From Desulfobacterales bacterium (GTDB taxonomy: Bacteria; Desulfobacterota; Desulfobacteria; Desulfobacterales; G963662235): 64,000 bases of DNA. The translations under genes were made by a program, and so were the position numbers. The stretch covers positions 927,070-991,069 of the forward strand of contig OY759308.1 of NCBI GenBank assembly GCA_963662235.1, read 5' to 3'. How positions within the stretch are numbered: position 1 is the stretch's first letter; every line of letters begins with the position of its first letter. Positions 26,983 through 64,000 of the stretch are shown piece by piece. The notes beneath the pieces were generated by a model. That model was not told the DNA's origin. It saw only the letters and a program-made list of their open reading frames with translations, and searched no databases.

Positions 26983-27043
26983 TATTATCATTTTTATAAG
27001 GAGGTTAAAAAAATGAATAATTATTAATTTAAATGGCGAGCTA

Positions 27044-28108
27044 TTAAAACTCAATTGCGAGTTGTGTTGTAAATGTATCTATTTCTTTTTTTGCATCACC
27101 TTCAAATTCTTGTTGCAGAAGCTCAAAAGACAAGCTGGTATTATCAAAGATGCCCCAGCTTAATACAACGCCAGATTCAGTTTCTGGTAAAAATTCAGCA
27201 CCATCATCAGAGCTACCATAACGAGCTGCTAATTCTATAGTATCTGAAATTGCTACACCAAATTCTACATTTAAGGCTTTTGGCTGCCTTTTTGTTGTCT
27301 CTCCTGTATCATAAAGTTCCCCTTTTTCAAAGCTGTCTGAAGCAGCAATATACTCTCCTGTAAGTTTAAAACGGTCAGCGAACTCATAGGAAACAAAAGC
27401 ACTATAACCAGCTACTATTGATTTTAAAACTTTATCAGTAGTTTTAACTTCTTCATTAAGTCCAGATGCCCCTGCTAAATTTGAAATATAAGATGCACTA
27501 ATATTAAAACCTTCAAAAGGGCTTAATGTAGCACTTGCAAAAAAACTGTCTACCTTATCATCTTCATCTTTTTCTTGAGCGGTAGCATTGAATAGACCTA
27601 ATGATACATCAAATTTTTCATCTGCACCTTTATATCCTGCTATTAATGAAGCAATATTCGATTCCCCTAATGTTAGTGTAACTGGGTCTGTGACAAAATG
27701 GGTCTCATAATTTCCGAAAGGCACAACTAATTTACCTGCAACTACATAAGGGGAGGCATTTCCTTTGCCTGTAATAGTAATGAATCCTTCATCTACTTCA
27801 ATTTTGCCGTCATCATTTTTTTTCAATACAACAGAACCTTCTGCATTGTTACCAGTTGCTACGTTTATACCTAATTCAAAATTACCTAATCCAAGTTCTC
27901 CTTTTTTTTCATCTTGAGAGCCCTTCTTGGAAGTTGTTTGATTTTTAAATTCAACTTCAATCGCTCCACTAAATTGGATATGATTATTTTTAGCGGCACT
28001 CTCTTCCAGTTTTTTTATTCTTTCTTCAATCGTTTCTTGTGCCATAGCATAGGAAGTCATTCCTAAAGTAACAAGCGTTAATAAAATCAAAACGAAACCT
28101 TTTTTCAT
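27044..28108 (-). CDS. Outer-membrane porin with a short N-terminal coiled coil
   Basis: Signal peptide MKKGFVLILLTLVTLGMTSYAMA, then ETIEERIKKLEESAAKNN, then a beta-strand-rich region ending ...TQLAIEF. Confidence 0.65.
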   Translation of the reverse strand: MKKGFVLILLTLVTLGMTSYAMAQETIEERIKKLEESAAKNNHIQFSGAIEVEFKNQTTSKKGSQDEKKGELGLGNFELGINVATGNNAEGSVVLKKNDDGKIEVDEGFITITGKGNASPYVVAGKLVVPFGNYETHFVTDPVTLTLGESNIASLIAGYKGADEKFDVSLGLFNATAQEKDEDDKVDSFFASATLSPFEGFNISASYISNLAGASGLNEEVKTTDKVLKSIVAGYSAFVSYEFADRFKLTGEYIAASDSFEKGELYDTGETTKRQPKALNVEFGVAISDTIELAARYGSSDDGAEFLPETESGVVLSWGIFDNTSLSFELLQQEFEGDAKKEIDTFTTQLAIEF

Positions 28109-28379
28109 AATTTTTTTTCTCCTTTTAATAGCTTTGAATAATCATTTTGTTGAAACTTTAATTATTCAGAGTTTCCATTATATCTATTTTAAAATTTATT
28201 AAACAAAATATAATTAGATTAAATAAAATAAATTATACATATCTAACTTTAAAAGCGTAAGCTATTACAATTTTGGTTTACTTTCTGTCAAGTGTTTTTT
28301 TAAAAATATATACTATTTCATCTTTTTTATGGTGCAGCGGCAATTTTTACAGTTCCTTTAACAAAAAAATGCTTTGCTT

Positions 28380-29633
28380 TTAGTTCTTATTAATTGTTCC
28401 GCCTTTATTACTTCCCCAAATTGCCTGAGATACACTATGTAAGCTGGAATTTGATAGCATATGAAGTTTTTTTTTATGTTTTTTTGCCAAGCTTTTAATA
28501 ATAGAACAAGCACCATGGCTGTTACAGTTAACAGGACAAACAACCATATCAGCACGTTTAAGACATGCTTCTAATTTTTTTGGTTTTTTTTTTACATAAC
28601 CACTATGGTAATCAAAGACACCGCCACTTTTTTCAATTACTTCTCTATATAAAGCTTCCATACCCTGTAATCCGCCAACAAGTAATATACGTTTTTTACA
28701 AAGGTCAAATGAAGGACAACTTGCATCACAACTGTTACTATGAAAAAATTGCGTTACTGTTTTTTTCATTTTGTTTTTTATGAGTTGATTTATTTTTTTT
28801 TGTTGTTCTATCTCTATCAATAATTGTAGATTTTTTTCTTTTAAAGAAGTTATTGAATCTTGGCTGTTTTGAATATTTAATTTTGCTTTTAGAAGTTTTT
28901 TATTTATAGTCTCTTTTTTTTGTTCATTTTTTCCGTAGTTGTATTTGTTGTTTGATGTAACAAGTTTTTCTTTTAACTCATTCTTTTCTTGTTCAGTTGC
29001 ACACAATATTTTTTTAATTTCTTCTTTATCTTTTTTTAGAATTTTATTTTCTTTTTGAAGCGTACGCCTTAATTTTATGTTTCCTTTTGTTTCTTCATAT
29101 AGCTTGTCAATTTTTTCTTGTTGTTTGAAAATTTTTTGTTTGAGCTTTAATATATTATCGTTGTTTAGAAATGTAGCCATATGAATCTCTCCATATATCT
29201 CTCTTTTTGTTTCAGCAGACAAATTTGGGTTTATAGCTGTTGCCCACATAACACCTGCATAATCTCCTGCTTCAAAAGCAATTTTAAAATAGTTTTGGAA
29301 CTCATTTTCACTTAACCCCAATAAAGATTCTTTCTCTCTTTTAAATTTACATTTTAATATATTATCTATTTTTTGGGATAAATCGTTTTTACTATTTAAG
29401 CTTGAAATTAATATTTCATGAATTTCGAAATAGCTTTTTTTCTTAATTGGTATATTTATTTTTTTGAGTAATTTTTTTTGTTCAGAATGTGTAAGACAGA
29501 TTCCCATTATTGGACATTTAAAAAAACCATCAACTTCCCAAAGTTTTAAAAGGTCTTTTTTTATTTTATCATTCTTATCTGTTTCATTTAAAGAATGATT
29601 TTTTTGTAATTTGTGTTGTAATTTTTTTAACAT
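28380..29633 (-). CDS. Hypothetical coiled-coil protein with Cys motifs and a C-terminal DUF2325-like domain
   Basis: 417 aa. The N-terminus contains FFKCPIMGICLTHSEQKKL. The central ~150 aa are K/E/Q-rich coiled coil. Then comes SNSCDASCPSFDLCKKR, then ILLVGGLQGMEALYREVIEKSGGVFDYHSG...ADMVVCPVNCNSHGACSIIKSLAKK, which resembles DUF2325. Confidence 0.5.
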   Translation of the reverse strand: MLKKLQHKLQKNHSLNETDKNDKIKKDLLKLWEVDGFFKCPIMGICLTHSEQKKLLKKINIPIKKKSYFEIHEILISSLNSKNDLSQKIDNILKCKFKREKESLLGLSENEFQNYFKIAFEAGDYAGVMWATAINPNLSAETKREIYGEIHMATFLNNDNILKLKQKIFKQQEKIDKLYEETKGNIKLRRTLQKENKILKKDKEEIKKILCATEQEKNELKEKLVTSNNKYNYGKNEQKKETINKKLLKAKLNIQNSQDSITSLKEKNLQLLIEIEQQKKINQLIKNKMKKTVTQFFHSNSCDASCPSFDLCKKRILLVGGLQGMEALYREVIEKSGGVFDYHSGYVKKKPKKLEACLKRADMVVCPVNCNSHGACSIIKSLAKKHKKKLHMLSNSSLHSVSQAIWGSNKGGTINKN

Positions 29634-29673
29634 ATATTTATTAGTCCATCTATTATTATATATATCTTAATAT

Positions 29674-29689
29674 ATTAGAATATTCTAAT
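29674..29689. promoter_or_regulatory. Perfect palindromic operator ATTAGAATATTCTAAT (candidate DtxR-family box)
   Basis: The 14-bp core TTAGAATATTCTAA (29675-29688) is identical to the site at 30320-30333. It lies about 40 nt upstream of the 29633 start codon and overlaps TATATT/TATAAT-like -10 hexamers on the minus strand. Confidence 0.6.
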
Positions 29690-29700
29690 TTTTTTAACAC

Positions 29701-29729
29701 AAAAAAACCACCATATTTAGGTGGTTTTT
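29701..29729 (-). terminator. Rho-independent terminator after the DtxR-like gene
   Basis: AAAAACCACC / GGTGGTTTTT stem, with a T-run on the minus strand. Confidence 0.7.
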
Positions 29730-30333: not shown

Positions 30334-30446
30334 TAGTTAAATAGTTGATATTTGTCAAGTCTATGTTAAAAGCCTACTTGTCTTGCTTTTACAATAGTAA
30401 AAGTGTAGGGCATTTAATTCGTTTGGATTTAAAAAAGATTAAAAAT

Positions 30447-30505
30447 GAGACCTTTGTACATAGCTCTATTTCTAAAAGTATAAGGTTAAGTTATGTTATG
30501 GTCTC
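30447..30505. repeat. Family-A palindromic element in the 5' leader of the Fe-S protein gene
   Basis: GAGACCTTTGTACATAGCTCTATTTCT...TATGTTATGGTCTC. The left arm matches the copies at 63946 and 1898. Confidence 0.6.
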
Positions 30506-31782: not shown

Positions 31783-31824
31783 TTGGTTTAGTATCTATGG
31801 GAAATAATTAAGGAATAAAAATAA

Positions 31825-33215: not shown

Positions 33216-33755
33216 ATGATAAAAAAAGAAGAAGCCGTTTTACTCGTAATTGACATTCAGGGAAAACTTGCAACTTTAATGCATAATAAAGAAAATCTTT
33301 ATCGCTCTCTTCAAACTGTCATACAAGCATTTAAAATTATGGAAATACCTATAATTTGGGTAGAACAAATTCCTGAAAAGTTAGGTAAGACTGTTGATGA
33401 AGTTAGCTCTTTGTTACAAAACGACACTTCAATCAAAAAGCATACCTTTAGCTGTTATCAAAATGATGAATTCAAAAACAAACTTGAAAGCTACAACAGA
33501 AAACAAATTTTAGTTACGGGTATAGAAACACATATTTGTATATATCAAACAACAATGGAACTTTTGCAAAATGGTTATGAAGTTGAAATAGTAGCCGATG
33601 CTGTGTCATCAAGAGAGTATGAAAATAAAAGAATTGCACTTGAAAAGATAGTAAATGCTGGAGGTAAGCTAACAACAACTGAAATGTTAGTTTTTGAGCT
33701 TTTAAAAAGTGCTGATGATAGTAACTTTAAAAAGATTGTACCTCTTCTAAAGTAA
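33216..33755 (+). CDS. Isochorismatase-family cysteine hydrolase
   Basis: AVLLVIDIQGKL... and VTGIETHICIYQT (catalytic Cys context). 179 aa. Confidence 0.75.
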   Translation: MIKKEEAVLLVIDIQGKLATLMHNKENLYRSLQTVIQAFKIMEIPIIWVEQIPEKLGKTVDEVSSLLQNDTSIKKHTFSCYQNDEFKNKLESYNRKQILVTGIETHICIYQTTMELLQNGYEVEIVADAVSSREYENKRIALEKIVNAGGKLTTTEMLVFELLKSADDSNFKKIVPLLK

Positions 33756-33779
33756 AATAGAGAAATTTTATTCTGGTGG
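33744..33779 (+). repeat. 36-bp direct repeat, copy 1 (left flank of the tandem array)
   Basis: CTTCTAAAGTAAAATAGAGAAATTTTATTCTGGTGG is identical to 34375-34410. It contains the hydrolase stop codon. Confidence 0.95.
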
Positions 33780-33785
33780 CCGCTT

Positions 33786-34370
33786 CGACAAGCTCAGCGA
33801 CCTATCGACAAGCTCAGCGACCTATCGACAAGCTCAGCGACCTTTCGACAAGCTCAGCGACCTATCGACAAGCTCAGCGACCTTTCGACAAGCTCAGCGA
33901 CCTTTCGACAAGCTCAGCGACCTTTCGACAAGCTCAGCGACCTTTCGACAAGCTCAGCGACCTATCGACAAGCTCAGCGACCCATCGACAAGCTCAGCGA
34001 CCTATCGACAAGCTCAGCGACCCATCGACAAGCTCAGCGACCTATTGACAAACTCAGCGACCTATCGACAAGTTCAGCGACCTATTGACAAGCTCAGCGA
34101 CCTATCGACAAGCTCAGCGACCTATCGACAAGCTCAGCGACCTATTGACAAACTCAGCGACCTATTGACAAACTCAACGACCTATTGACAAGCTCAGCGA
34201 CCTATTGACAAACTCAACGACCTATTGACAAGCTCAGCGACCTATTGACAAACTCAACGACCTATCGACAAGCTCAGCGACCTATTGACAAGCTCAGCGA
34301 CCTTTCGACAAGCTCAGCGACCTTTCGACAAGCTCAGCGACCTTTCGACAAGCTCAGCGACCCGACCTAT
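33786..34370 (+). repeat. Tandem array of 29 copies of a 20-bp unit (consensus CGACAAGCTCAGCGACCTAT)
   Basis: Counted directly. Units begin every 20 nt from 33786 to 34346. Variants are tails of TAT, TTT or CAT, and TGACAAACTCAACGA-type cores. There are no spacers. Confidence 0.95.
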
Positions 34371-34374
34371 CAAA

Positions 34375-34410
34375 CTTCTAAAGTAAAATAGAGAAATTTT
34401 ATTCTGGTGG
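34375..34410 (+). repeat. 36-bp direct repeat, copy 2 (right flank of the tandem array)
   Basis: Identical to 33744-33779. It contains the pheT stop codon and last codons (minus strand). Confidence 0.95.
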
Positions 34411-36813
34411 TAGGTCTACTTTAATCTCTTTAATAAGCTTTGTTGTAAGATGAGTGTGAAGTTTGTTAATAGCTTTATCTTTTAAAGATTTTTCGTATGA
34501 CCTGTAAATTATTCTTATAGATATACTTTTTTTGCCCTCTGGTATTGGTTTTCCTTCATAAACATCAATTATAGCTACATCTTCTATAAGGTTTTCGTTA
34601 AGACTTTCTATATATTTTAGTATATCATTAACAGGCATTTTTTTATCAGAGATAAGTGTTATATCTCTTGCAATTGATGGATATTTGGAAATAGGGGAGT
34701 CTTGTCTTTTAAAAGTTATTAGAGTTAGCAATGTGGAGAGGTCAATTTCTGCAATGTAGGTTTTTTGTTTTATTTCGAACTTCTTTAATGTCTCGCTTTT
34801 AACTTCACCTATTTTTCCGATTAGTTTATCATTTACAAAAATAAAAGCAGAATGAGTATGTCTTAAATAGTAAGACTCTTCAGACTTAACTTTTTTAAAC
34901 TCTGGTTTGATGAAAAGAGCTTTTAAAAAAGAGTCTAAGGCTCCTTTTATGTCATAAAAATCGAATTCACGATTTTTATCGTACCAAACATTATTATTTT
35001 GTGACCCTGTTAATAAGAAGACTAAATACTCTTTTTCTTTAGGCATCTCTTCATTTGTCTTAAAAAACACTTTGCCTGTCTCAAAAAGCTTTAAGTTATT
35101 TCTACTGTTAGAAATATTGTTTTTTATACTGTAGAATATACCTGGTAAAAGAGAAGTCCTCATAACAGATTGTTCTTCTTTAAGAGGATTCGCAATTTCT
35201 ATAATATTTCGTCTTTCATCATCATCAGGAAGATTTAATTTGTCCTGAAAATCTTTATTTATAAAGCTATAGTTTATTGTTTCGGTAAAGCCATAGCCTA
35301 TTAAAATGTTTTTTATTTGGTTTTTTAAATAAAGATTCTTTTCGCTATAGATTGCATTTAAGGTAATCGTAGGAAAAGATGTAGGAATTTTATCGTAACC
35401 AGACAGTCTTGCTACTTCTTCTACTAAATCTATAGGTTTTACGATATCTGTACGAAAAGAAGGAATAGTTACTTTGATTTGATTGTCGCTTATTTTTTCA
35501 ACTTTAAACTCTATAGATTCAAGATGCTTTTTTACTTCATTTAAAGTTACACTAAGCCCCAGTATTTTTGTTATATAATCGATATTTAAAACAATCTCTT
35601 TATTTCCTTTAATTGTTTTTGTGCGACTATCAATGTGTCCTGTAATAGTTTTCCCTTCGCCCAATTTTTCAATCATTTCAGTAGCTCTATAAAGAGCTTT
35701 TAAGGTTATTTCAGGGTCAACTTCTCTTTCAATGCGGTGTGAAGCTTCGGTGTGAATAGAGAGTTTTTTTGATGTTTTTCTAATTGAAGCTGGATTAAAA
35801 TATGCACTTTCAAGCAACACTCTTTTAGTCTTATCATTAATTTCGGTATTTAACCCGCCCATAACTCCTGCTATACCAATACTTTTTTTGCCGTCACAAA
35901 TCATTAGCATATCATCGTTAAGTTCTCTTGTCTTTTCATCAAGTGTTGTGAATTTTTCTTTGTCGCAAGCTCTTTTTACAACAATTCTATTTTCTTCTAA
36001 GAGATCATAATCATAAGCATGTAAAGGTTGTCCCATCTCCATCATAACAAAATTTGTTATATCTACGATATTGTTTATTGGTTTTAAATCTAAAGATAGT
36101 AACTTTTTTTTTAACCATTCTGGAGACTCTTTTACTGTAATATCAAAAATAAGCTTAGCACAATATCTTGGGCACAATTCATCTAACACCTCAACAGATG
36201 TTAAGTTGTCTATTTCACCCTCTTTTTCATCTATTTTTATTTTAGGATACTCTACTTTTTTATCTTGAAGAGCACCAACTTCTCTTGCAATTCCTATAAT
36301 AGAAAGACAGTCCGCTCTGTTTGGTGTAAGGTCTATCTCTATTAGTGTGTCTGAAAGGTTAAGAGTTTCATTTATAGAGGAACCTATTTCGGCTTCATCG
36401 TTTAAAACTAAAATTCCACTGCTGTCATCTGATAGGGCAAGTTCTTTAGCACTTAAAAGCATACCTTCTGATTTTATGCCTCTGATTTTGCTTTTTTTTA
36501 GTTTTTGACCATCAGGCATAGTGTCGCCAGGTAGAGCGATAGGAACTTTCATTCCTTCTTTAATATTGGAAGCACCGCAAACGACTTTTAAAATCTTATC
36601 GTTTTCTATCTTAACATCGCAAAGAGAGAGTTTGTCTGCATCTGGATGAGGTTCTATTTTTAATATCTTGGCAACTTTAAAAGGTTTTAGATATTCATAA
36701 ATATTGCGAGTTGAATCAACTTCAAGTCCTACATTTGTAAGACTTTTGACCAATTCATCTGTTTCAATATTAACAGGTATATAATCTTTTAGACAGGATA
36801 AACTTATTTTCAT
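34399..36813 (-). CDS. pheT: Phenylalanine--tRNA ligase beta subunit
   Basis: 804 aa. N-terminal tRNA-binding domain (VKILKIEPHPDADKLSLCDV), B3/4 and B5 domains, and a C-terminal FDX-ACB domain. Lies directly downstream of pheS. Confidence 0.95.
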   Translation of the reverse strand: MKISLSCLKDYIPVNIETDELVKSLTNVGLEVDSTRNIYEYLKPFKVAKILKIEPHPDADKLSLCDVKIENDKILKVVCGASNIKEGMKVPIALPGDTMPDGQKLKKSKIRGIKSEGMLLSAKELALSDDSSGILVLNDEAEIGSSINETLNLSDTLIEIDLTPNRADCLSIIGIAREVGALQDKKVEYPKIKIDEKEGEIDNLTSVEVLDELCPRYCAKLIFDITVKESPEWLKKKLLSLDLKPINNIVDITNFVMMEMGQPLHAYDYDLLEENRIVVKRACDKEKFTTLDEKTRELNDDMLMICDGKKSIGIAGVMGGLNTEINDKTKRVLLESAYFNPASIRKTSKKLSIHTEASHRIEREVDPEITLKALYRATEMIEKLGEGKTITGHIDSRTKTIKGNKEIVLNIDYITKILGLSVTLNEVKKHLESIEFKVEKISDNQIKVTIPSFRTDIVKPIDLVEEVARLSGYDKIPTSFPTITLNAIYSEKNLYLKNQIKNILIGYGFTETINYSFINKDFQDKLNLPDDDERRNIIEIANPLKEEQSVMRTSLLPGIFYSIKNNISNSRNNLKLFETGKVFFKTNEEMPKEKEYLVFLLTGSQNNNVWYDKNREFDFYDIKGALDSFLKALFIKPEFKKVKSEESYYLRHTHSAFIFVNDKLIGKIGEVKSETLKKFEIKQKTYIAEIDLSTLLTLITFKRQDSPISKYPSIARDITLISDKKMPVNDILKYIESLNENLIEDVAIIDVYEGKPIPEGKKSISIRIIYRSYEKSLKDKAINKLHTHLTTKLIKEIKVDLPPE

Positions 36814-39080: not shown

Positions 39081-39237
39081 TTTATCCTCCTAATTTTCTA
39101 AATTATTACTTATATAAATGATAAGATTTCAATAATCTTGATATCTTCTAATTTAAGAAAATCAGAATAACTAAGTAACTTTTTTTTAAAATTCAAGTAA
39201 TATTTTTATATTTTTAAAAACAGAAGTAAAAAAATAT

Positions 39238-51864: not shown

Positions 51865-52086
51865 ATGTCTGTCAAGGAAGAAGCTATAAAAGTTCAGGGG
51901 AAAGTACTTGAGACTCTTCCCAACGCTACATTTAAAGTTGAATTAGAAACCAAGCATCAAATAATTGCACACATTTCTGGTAAGATGCGTATGCACTTTA
52001 TTAAGATATTGCCAGGTGATACTGTTACAGTTGAGCTTTCACCTTATGACTTAACTAAAGGTAGGATTACTTATAGAGAAAAATAA
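51865..52086 (+). CDS. infA: Translation initiation factor IF-1
   Basis: [17 protein letters not shown]...[35 protein letters not shown]. Confidence 0.97.
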
Positions 52087-52202
52087 GACCTTTACACATA
52101 ATGTTTTTTATTAAAAAACAGTGATTGTTTTTGTAAAACATTAATTTTTGATAATTTTACAAAAACTTATAAAACCATTATAAAGTATATGTGCAAAGGT
52201 CT
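52086..52202. repeat. Family-A palindromic element, long copy (117 bp), inserted between infA and rpmJ
   Basis: AGACCTTTACACATAATG...TATATGTGCAAAGGTCT termini, plus the internal inverted repeat TGTTTTTGTAAAA/TTTTACAAAAAC. The left end overlaps the infA stop codon. Confidence 0.75.
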
Positions 52203-52265
52203 TAAAGATAAGAGATTTTTGGGTAATCTTTAAAAATCTTAAAATAAATATAAAGAGATAAAAAA

Positions 52266-63904: not shown

Positions 63905-63945
63905 CTTAAGAGTTTTATATAAAAATTTAAAAGTTTACTAAAAGA

Positions 63946-64000
63946 GAGACCTTTGCACATAGCTCTATTTTGCTTTTGTTTTGTGGTGCAGTAGTATATT
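63946..64000. repeat. Family-A palindromic element, left arm (runs off the window)
   Basis: GAGACCTTTGCACATAGCTCTATTTTGCTTTTGTTTTGTGGTGCAGTAGTATATT matches the reverse complement of 60334-60388. Confidence 0.75.

Follow-up and report, generated by a model that had tools for sequence, protein, structure and literature searches.

Introduction

Bacterial variable-number tandem repeats (VNTRs) include the mycobacterial interspersed repetitive unit (MIRU)-VNTR loci and the short tandemly repeated repetitive (STRR) arrays of cyanobacteria, and extragenic elements of the REP/BIME type (repetitive extragenic palindromes and bacterial interspersed mosaic elements) lie at the 3′ ends of convergent genes. 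Target duplications left by inserted DNA usually measure 2–14 bp. Here we analyse a locus that recalls several of these systems at once, in a stretch of 64,000 nucleotides (the window) from the 2.13-Mb contig OY759308.1 of a Desulfobacterales bacterium (assembly GCA_963662235.1). It is an array of 29 head-to-tail units of 20 bp between two convergent genes, one for an isochorismatase-family hydrolase and the other pheT, and it is bracketed by an exact 36-bp direct duplication of both gene ends. Our preferred reading, to which we give a probability of roughly 0.55, is a strain-variable intergenic minisatellite (VNTR) that began when foreign DNA was inserted once, illegitimately, at a break staggered by 36 bp, and was afterwards shaped by slippage, neutral drift and occasional deletion.

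Like the MIRU-VNTR and STRR loci, the array consists of non-coding repeats of some tens of base pairs arranged head to tail, is intergenic and close to gene ends, differs in copy number between strains and contains variants reshuffled by slippage. Unlike them it is foreign in composition (53% GC against 32%), is known from one locus and is flanked by a 36-bp duplication of both gene ends. A perfect duplication of this kind points to a discrete insertion event rather than to growth in situ. The REP/BIME elements share with the array its position at the 3′ ends of convergent genes, and the core of the unit, CGCTTCGACAAGCTCAGCG, recurs in other genomes, often in or beside hairpins; the units here are, however, direct and non-palindromic, show no significant folding and have no dispersed copies in the window. 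Iterons and plasmid centromeres such as F sopC and R1 parC are also direct repeats without spacers that recur about every one or two helical turns, whereas the present array lies in a chromosomal housekeeping context without rep or par genes, its unit has no dyad, and its copy number and sequence vary freely.

A target duplication far beyond the usual 2–14 bp is shared with insertions of the IS1634/IS1549 type. These have direct repeats of 8–514 bp, and the IS1634 family ends in the consensus C-----YT (PMC2266710). The locus differs from such insertions in having no transposase and no terminal inverted repeats, in ends that depart from the consensus and in an insert that is a tandem array. Integration by Cas1-Cas2 duplicates a segment of repeat length and can act off-target, according to PMC6698737, which cites Nivala et al. 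2018. An off-target CRISPR unit would resemble the locus in a duplication of fixed length, about 36 bp, around foreign DNA, and the primordial insert here was possibly 30–35 bp long. It differs in that the “spacer” is a 595-bp tandem repeat, there are two repeats, no cas gene is in view and the 36-mer has no repeat-like features.

Anatomy of the array and its flanking duplication

The components of the locus are as follows, in window coordinates.

33216–33755, plus strand: isochorismatase-family hydrolase gene (Pfam PF00857, E=2.5e-32; open reading frame (ORF) listing); its last three codons and stop (33744–33755) lie in the left 36-mer.
33744–33779, no strand: left 36-bp copy, an exact match to 34375–34410, in which the hydrolase end is functional and the pheT end is a non-functional copy.
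33780–33785, plus strand: CCGCTT, with which the insert starts on the left outside the repeats; joined to the first unit it makes the 22-nt motif CGCTTCGACAAGCTCAGCGACC, and it is identical in the second strain.
33786–34345, plus strand: 28 regular 20-bp units with consensus CGACAAGCTCAGCGACCTAT and eight sequence variants, from Tandem Repeats Finder (TRF), the parse and the mismatch search.
34346–34370, plus strand: terminal 25-bp unit with CGACC doubled (CGACAAGCTCAG-CGACC-CGACC-TAT), identical in the second strain (loci L086/L089).
34371–34374, plus strand: right non-repeat end of the insert, CAAA, read from the sequence.
34375–34410, no strand: right 36-bp copy, in which the pheT end is functional and the hydrolase end is a non-functional copy.
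34399–36813, minus strand: pheT, phenylalanyl-tRNA synthetase beta subunit (Pfam B3_4, B5, tRNA_synthFbeta and FDX-ACB); its stop and last three codons (34399–34410) lie in the right 36-mer.

TRF reported a single array (33785–34362, period 20, 28.9 copies, 94% matches), and both a unit-by-unit parse and a search allowing up to three mismatches gave 29 units where shuffled sequence is expected to give none. This bears out the original prediction, made from the sequence alone, of 29 head-to-tail units at 33786–34370, the last of which is the 25-bp unit. Head-to-tail units in the range of 10–100 bp are what defines a minisatellite or VNTR, and the array has them.

The 36-mer CTTCTAAAGTAAAATAGAGAAATTTTATTCTGGTGG occurs exactly twice in the window, at the two positions predicted, where no copy is expected by chance, and the identity between its copies extends by 0 bp further to the left or right. 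No other exact direct repeat of 18 bp or longer occurs within 3 kb anywhere in the window, except for one 18-mer common to two adjacent coding regions that are apparently paralogous. The ORF listing confirmed that it holds the ends of both genes, namely the last three codons and stop of the hydrolase gene and the stop and last three codons of pheT. The suggestion that the two genes once converged and nearly abutted thus stands, with the amendment that in the single-copy state their stop codons are 12 bp apart rather than about 20 bp. The insert, composed of CCGCTT, 28 units, the 25-bp unit and CAAA, measures 595 bp; together with the duplicated 36 bp about 631 bp has been added, in line with the earlier estimate of roughly 630 bp.

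With 52.6% GC against 31.9% for the window, the array is foreign to its surroundings by composition and is the sole non-coding GC-rich island in the 64 kb. Within the unit, positions 2–6, 9–11 and 14–17 are invariant, and there is no dyad symmetry. Units with a TTT tail are grouped towards both ends, as had been noticed, although the first group was placed slightly wrongly: they are numbers 3, 5–8 and 26–28 (33826–45, 33866–33945 and 34286–34345). The nine units in which an initial T creates a TTGACA hexamer had been listed correctly. The proposal that all units face one side of the helix does not hold: at 10.5 bp per turn a 20-bp period drifts by about 34 degrees with each unit (about 1 bp per two turns), so that a helix face is common only to neighbouring units.

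Presence in a second strain

Look-ups of exact proteins led to a second strain, represented by contig_2 (1.6 Mb; loci L086 and L089) of ENA assembly ERZ21862600, of which 20.5 kb was compared. Its flanks are 96–98.3% identical to the window. The insertion lies at the identical site, starts with CCGCTT and ends with the identical 25-bp unit and CAAA, and it contains 21 units rather than 29, in a different order of variants. Copy number at this one locus therefore differs between strains, as in a VNTR. The original prediction had named, as something that would speak against it, a simple VNTR varying freely at many loci of close relatives without the flanking duplication. In part this is the case: the relative does vary (21 against 29 copies), but at the same locus and with the duplication.

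Each 36-mer of the second strain carries one private substitution (left TAGAAAAAT, right GAGAGATTT), and both substitutions fall within the 12 bp between the genes. Over 72 bp, two differences come close to the divergence between the strains, which suggests that the duplication is about as old as the strain split or older. In both arrays a rare T1/A7 unit is followed closely by a unique T8 unit, and this common order argues for descent from one array that was already heterogeneous.

A third data set bears on whether the array is real. The short-read contig L087 of SRR34447573 (of which L004 is part) matches the window at 100% and ends at 34381, which is position 7 of the right 36-mer. Logan contigs are built with k=31, and a de Bruijn graph of that k would be expected to break there if the 36-mer has two continuations. 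Mis-assembly can yield tandem arrays and short duplications; however, two independent megabase contigs from different strains carry the array with strain-specific substitutions, and in the third data set the contig ends at the very point expected from a 36-mer in two copies. We rejected an artefact of assembly or library on these grounds as very unlikely. The array and the duplication are biological, and are present in two diverged strains.

An array-free site from a sister species, which had been proposed as a check, was absent from the data examined. In 5.8 billion protein clusters the best hydrolase homologue reached 58% identity, and the closest pheT found in the GTDB species representatives, from metagenome-assembled genomes (MAGs) of Desulfobacterales, reached 49%. 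SecY is 76–80% identical to that of Desulfonema and of Desulfobacterales MAGs and 89% identical to one ENA fragment, by which the organism falls in the Desulfobacterales, and the look-up of a 368-aa neighbouring gene gave no record. The organism apparently has no close relative in the collections searched and belongs to a low-GC (32%) lineage within Desulfobacterales.

Contigs with a single 36-mer

Two short-read contigs, L001 (SRR34447596) and L002 (SRR34447527), run from the hydrolase gene through a single 36-mer into pheT without an array. L001 has the window-type base at 26/26 sites that separate the window from L089 in this interval, and L002 is likewise of window type. As 36 exceeds 31, each 31-mer of the single-copy path is also found in an array-bearing allele, so that these contigs alone cannot exclude the array. 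Passage through the site in two samples and a break in the third argue for a real polymorphism. With this caveat (k=31 < 36) the contigs suggest a precise loss of the array in window-type strains. They would most simply be secondary precise deletions by way of the 36-bp repeats, not ancestral relics, if the insertion predates the strain split.

Variation within the array

Over both arrays there are seven types of unit variant: five G:C-to-A:T transitions, an A-to-T change and a T-to-C change. A preponderance of GC-to-AT variants is what AT-biased mutation is expected to produce on unconstrained foreign GC-rich DNA. Identity between units two apart is enriched in the window array (10 observed, 4.5 expected, p=0.004), and units 19–24 alternate; together these look like the trace of a 40-bp block duplication. 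Of the higher-order structure in the array, only that at lag 2 is significant. The copy-number gap between the strains is eight units.

Coding, promoter, RNA and replication signals

The longest open stretch through the array has 135 codons in the window strain and 59 in the second strain. Its peptide has no homologue among the 5.8 billion protein clusters and no Pfam match. As the unit length is not a multiple of 3 and the open stretches are not conserved, we rejected a coding repeat. The array is non-coding, as had been supposed and as is expected of a VNTR. A promoter scan found no promoter-like site in the array, the TTGACA hexamers being without a matching −10 box, and an array of promoters was likewise rejected. 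The terminator scan was empty within the array, an Rfam search of it gave no match, and the folding z-scores of the two strands against shuffles (+1.86 and −0.39) were no better than shuffles; these results dispose of a terminator or structured RNA.

The original prediction had offered an att-core duplication as one origin of the 36-bp repeat. The 36-mer as read is not like dif, the insert has no gene, and the rise of cumulative GC skew continues across the site, which is therefore not a replication terminus. Insertion at the terminus through dif, as by an integrative mobile element exploiting Xer (IMEX), was rejected since the skew does not switch at the site, and an att-core origin, with no integrase or dif context, is unlikely. 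No rep, par, integrase, transposase or cas gene was seen among the annotated neighbouring ORFs. The neighbours are core chromosomal genes, for the hydrolase, TusA, a sulfur-transport protein, pheST, rplT, rpmI, infC and the ribosomal-protein operons. The iteron or centromere geometry that had been proposed also finds no positive evidence, as there is no dyad and, at this locus, no adjacent rep or par gene and no origin or partition locus.

The locus was also compared with the features that define other repeat classes. The window has no CRISPR array of three or more regular repeats with unique spacers of similar length, and no cas gene. The 20-bp unit is not the palindromic hairpin of REP elements or of REP doublets forming hairpins (REPINs). 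A target-site duplication, as left by transposable elements or miniature inverted-repeat transposable elements (MITEs), is present as the exact 36 bp; its length is atypical, as the original prediction had remarked of ordinary transposons, and is matched only by the IS1634/IS1549 range. Terminal inverted repeats were not found on comparing the left end (CCGCTTCGACAAGC...) with the reverse complement of the right end (TTTGATAGGTCGGG...). The array had no dispersed copies in the 64-kb window, the 20.5 kb of the second strain or the public collections searched.

Source of the unit

No described element with this unit had been known to the original prediction, and the search that it proposed found no array elsewhere in the collections. 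A pattern of two units had no match in GTDB species genomes or in IMG/VR, and one match in JGI metagenomes: the end of a GC-rich contig (L003) that has no more than two units, GACAAGCTCAGCGACCGTAG. These come after a hairpin, GCTTGTCGAAG-N5-CTTCGACAAGC, directly 3′ of a gene. This contig and the left junction in the window have the 22-mer CGCTTCGACAAGCTCAGCGACC in common, including the apparent filler CGCTT. A BLAST search of plasmids and phages did not find the array and matched only an Azospirillum coding heptad repeat of 21-bp period (IDKLD...), which we rejected as a relative since the likeness is a coincidence at codon level. A second BLAST search gave weak scattered matches only, and the core 12-mer appears in the literature in unrelated primers only.

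Shorter parts of the unit are found more widely. The 19-mer TTCGACAAGCTCAGCGACC occurs in eight IMG/VR stretches, with CGC directly before it in 7/8, and the 17-mer CGCTTCGACAAGCTCAG in 31 stretches, with CG as the next two bases in 20/31. Their contexts are mixed and include intergenic hairpins, loops between inverted repeats and one phage tape-measure gene. One contig (L092) has an 18-bp unit in 4.6 copies, and CTTCGACCC in 2.8 copies directly upstream of a second copy of the motif. More generally, CGCTTCGACAAGCTCAGCG turns up again in unrelated contigs, viral and bacterial, with 38–70% GC, often in or beside hairpins and in some cases with stutter repeats. Sites of the motif in these contigs are as follows.

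L092, 1427–1520 and 3957–3989.
L097, 6100–6260.
L003, 1499–1554.
Also L105, L112, L091 and L099 (IMG/VR contigs).

The recurrence of the 22-mer and of the motif suggests that the array was seeded by a copy of a short motif found in unrelated, mostly GC-richer DNA.

Discussion

The history that we infer begins with a single insertion of short foreign GC-rich DNA at the convergent hydrolase/pheT junction. The first insert may have consisted only of CCGCTT, one or two units and CAAA, about 30–55 bp. Strand cuts 36 bp apart, followed by fill-in, would have doubled the 36 bp and left both gene ends intact. The 20-bp unit would then have multiplied through replication slippage and unequal recombination, and the array would since have drifted in copy number (29 and 21), through two-unit block duplications and mostly GC-to-AT decay. 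Recombination between the 36-bp repeats could remove the whole insert precisely, which would account for the contigs with a single 36-mer. The array most likely has no sequence-specific function and is at most a 0.6-kb spacer between convergent transcription units. If this reading is true, the locus is a clean natural case of the birth of a VNTR, with a datable scar, expansion, biased decay and, probably, precise loss. As a marker it would help to tell strains of this uncultured Desulfobacterales lineage apart, and it would be of little functional importance.

Several points weigh against this account. The 36-bp duplication, the sole unusual part of the locus, is far longer than target duplications in ordinary transposition or simple end-joining, and we know of no enzyme implicated in it. 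Neutrality would follow from an absence of signals. The array persists in two lineages about 2–4% diverged in their flanks despite repeats that are prone to deletion, which could hint at selection. The core of the unit recurs in many unrelated genomes, in some with stutter, and this could reflect an active mechanism rather than chance capture. Searches for further copies reached the 64-kb window, the 20.5 kb of the second strain and the collections only.

The alternatives differ chiefly in how they account for the duplication and for the regularity of the array. A non-autonomous mobile element, in which an insertion carrying a minisatellite is moved in trans by a transposase making long duplications, or by a recombinase using the 36-mer as att core, would explain why the duplication is perfect, why the insert ends are conserved in two strains and why presence and absence of the array appear to be polymorphic on an otherwise identical haplotype; the contigs with a single 36-mer would be excision products or sites never occupied. 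Direct repeats as long as this one are documented for IS1634 and IS1549 (PMC2266710). However, the insert lacks terminal inverted repeats, as its left end (CCGCTTCGAC...) does not match its right end read in reverse complement (TTTGATAGGT...), and the ends are unlike the IS1634-family consensus C-----YT (PMC2266710), on which grounds a MITE or IS1634-type element was rejected. Neither a transposase or integrase in the annotated neighbourhood nor a second copy in the material searched was seen, and the common rare variants and the diverged 36-mers of L089 agree better with a single old event than with repeated insertion, so that we consider a mobile element unlikely. There is an outside chance that the duplication around a foreign insert of perhaps 30–35 bp originally was left by an enzyme whose ruler is fixed at 36 bp, either an off-target integrase of the Cas1-Cas2 type, whose newborn CRISPR-like unit degenerated to a minisatellite, or undescribed machinery by which copies of the widespread motif CGCTTCGACAAGCTCAGCG are inserted, reiterated and excised. 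For the first of these, collapse of the array to one unit (CCGCTT, unit and CAAA) would give segments of 36, 30–35 and 36 bp, as in CRISPR systems with 36-bp repeats, and the motif of the foreign insert is also present in viral contigs. Off-target integration that duplicates non-CRISPR DNA and the spontaneous birth of CRISPR are documented in PMC6698737, which cites Nivala et al. 2018. The window, though, has neither cas genes nor a CRISPR array, the 36-mer lacks a repeat-like palindrome and is present as only two “repeats,” and the expansion of a single 20-bp unit by later slippage would be an extra, unobserved step; this origin is very unlikely. We give correspondingly little credence to the broader idea that the locus marks an undescribed insertion mechanism, although an integrase-type ruler or a mobile repeat-generating mechanism, if true, would be a process not yet described in bacteria.

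A functional role is the other alternative. The regular 20-bp spacing with invariant blocks and the retention of the array in two strains could indicate a protein-binding array of the iteron, centromere or nucleoid-protein type, or an insulator between the convergent genes, and known centromeres such as F sopC are tandem arrays without spacers. Against this, the site lies in core chromosomal DNA beside pheST and the operons for ribosomal proteins, where neither rep nor par genes were found; the strains differ freely in copy number and in the order of variants, the variants follow mutational bias, and a unit without dyad symmetry repeats at a period that is out of helix phase beyond a few units. 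Concerted evolution alone can explain the invariant blocks, and the apparent loss in window-type strains suggests that the array is dispensable. We therefore regard a binding function as unlikely.

Other strain differences and elements nearby

Tandem intergenic arrays are also found just downstream of pheT in related Desulfobacteraceae MAGs, which indicates that such arrays are not exotic in this order. They are listed here.

L015, 6528–6593 and 7568–7678: 16-bp unit in 4 copies and 11-bp unit (CCTATTGATCC) in 10 copies.
L016, 7584–7683, and L053, 7068–7184: the other pheT-downstream arrays, which include a 21-bp unit in 5.6 copies.

In L015 the region of the pheT stop is itself tandemly duplicated (CTGCCGGCCTGATC, two copies).

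Two larger segments distinguish the strains. A 2.7-kb segment of the window (27030–29722), between genes for an ABC ATPase and an iron-dependent repressor, is absent from L089; its ORFs encode a 354-aa protein without Pfam match and a 417-aa DUF2325 protein. Conversely, a 1.6-kb segment (L089, 6965–8586) between genes for a 4Fe-4S protein and sulfur transport is found only in the other strain and is absent at window position 31794–31802; its two small ORFs encode 126 aa assigned to no family and 195 aa that weakly match DUF4181.

A small MITE-like family with the terminal inverted repeats GA(G/C)CTTTGCACATA ... TATGTGCAAAGGTCT is also present, in the following copies.

L089, 15756–15951: about 200 bp, at infC/rpsL; absent at window position 39102–39122.
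Window, 52084–52204: 121 bp.
Window, 30440–30471 and 63939–63970: solo copies.

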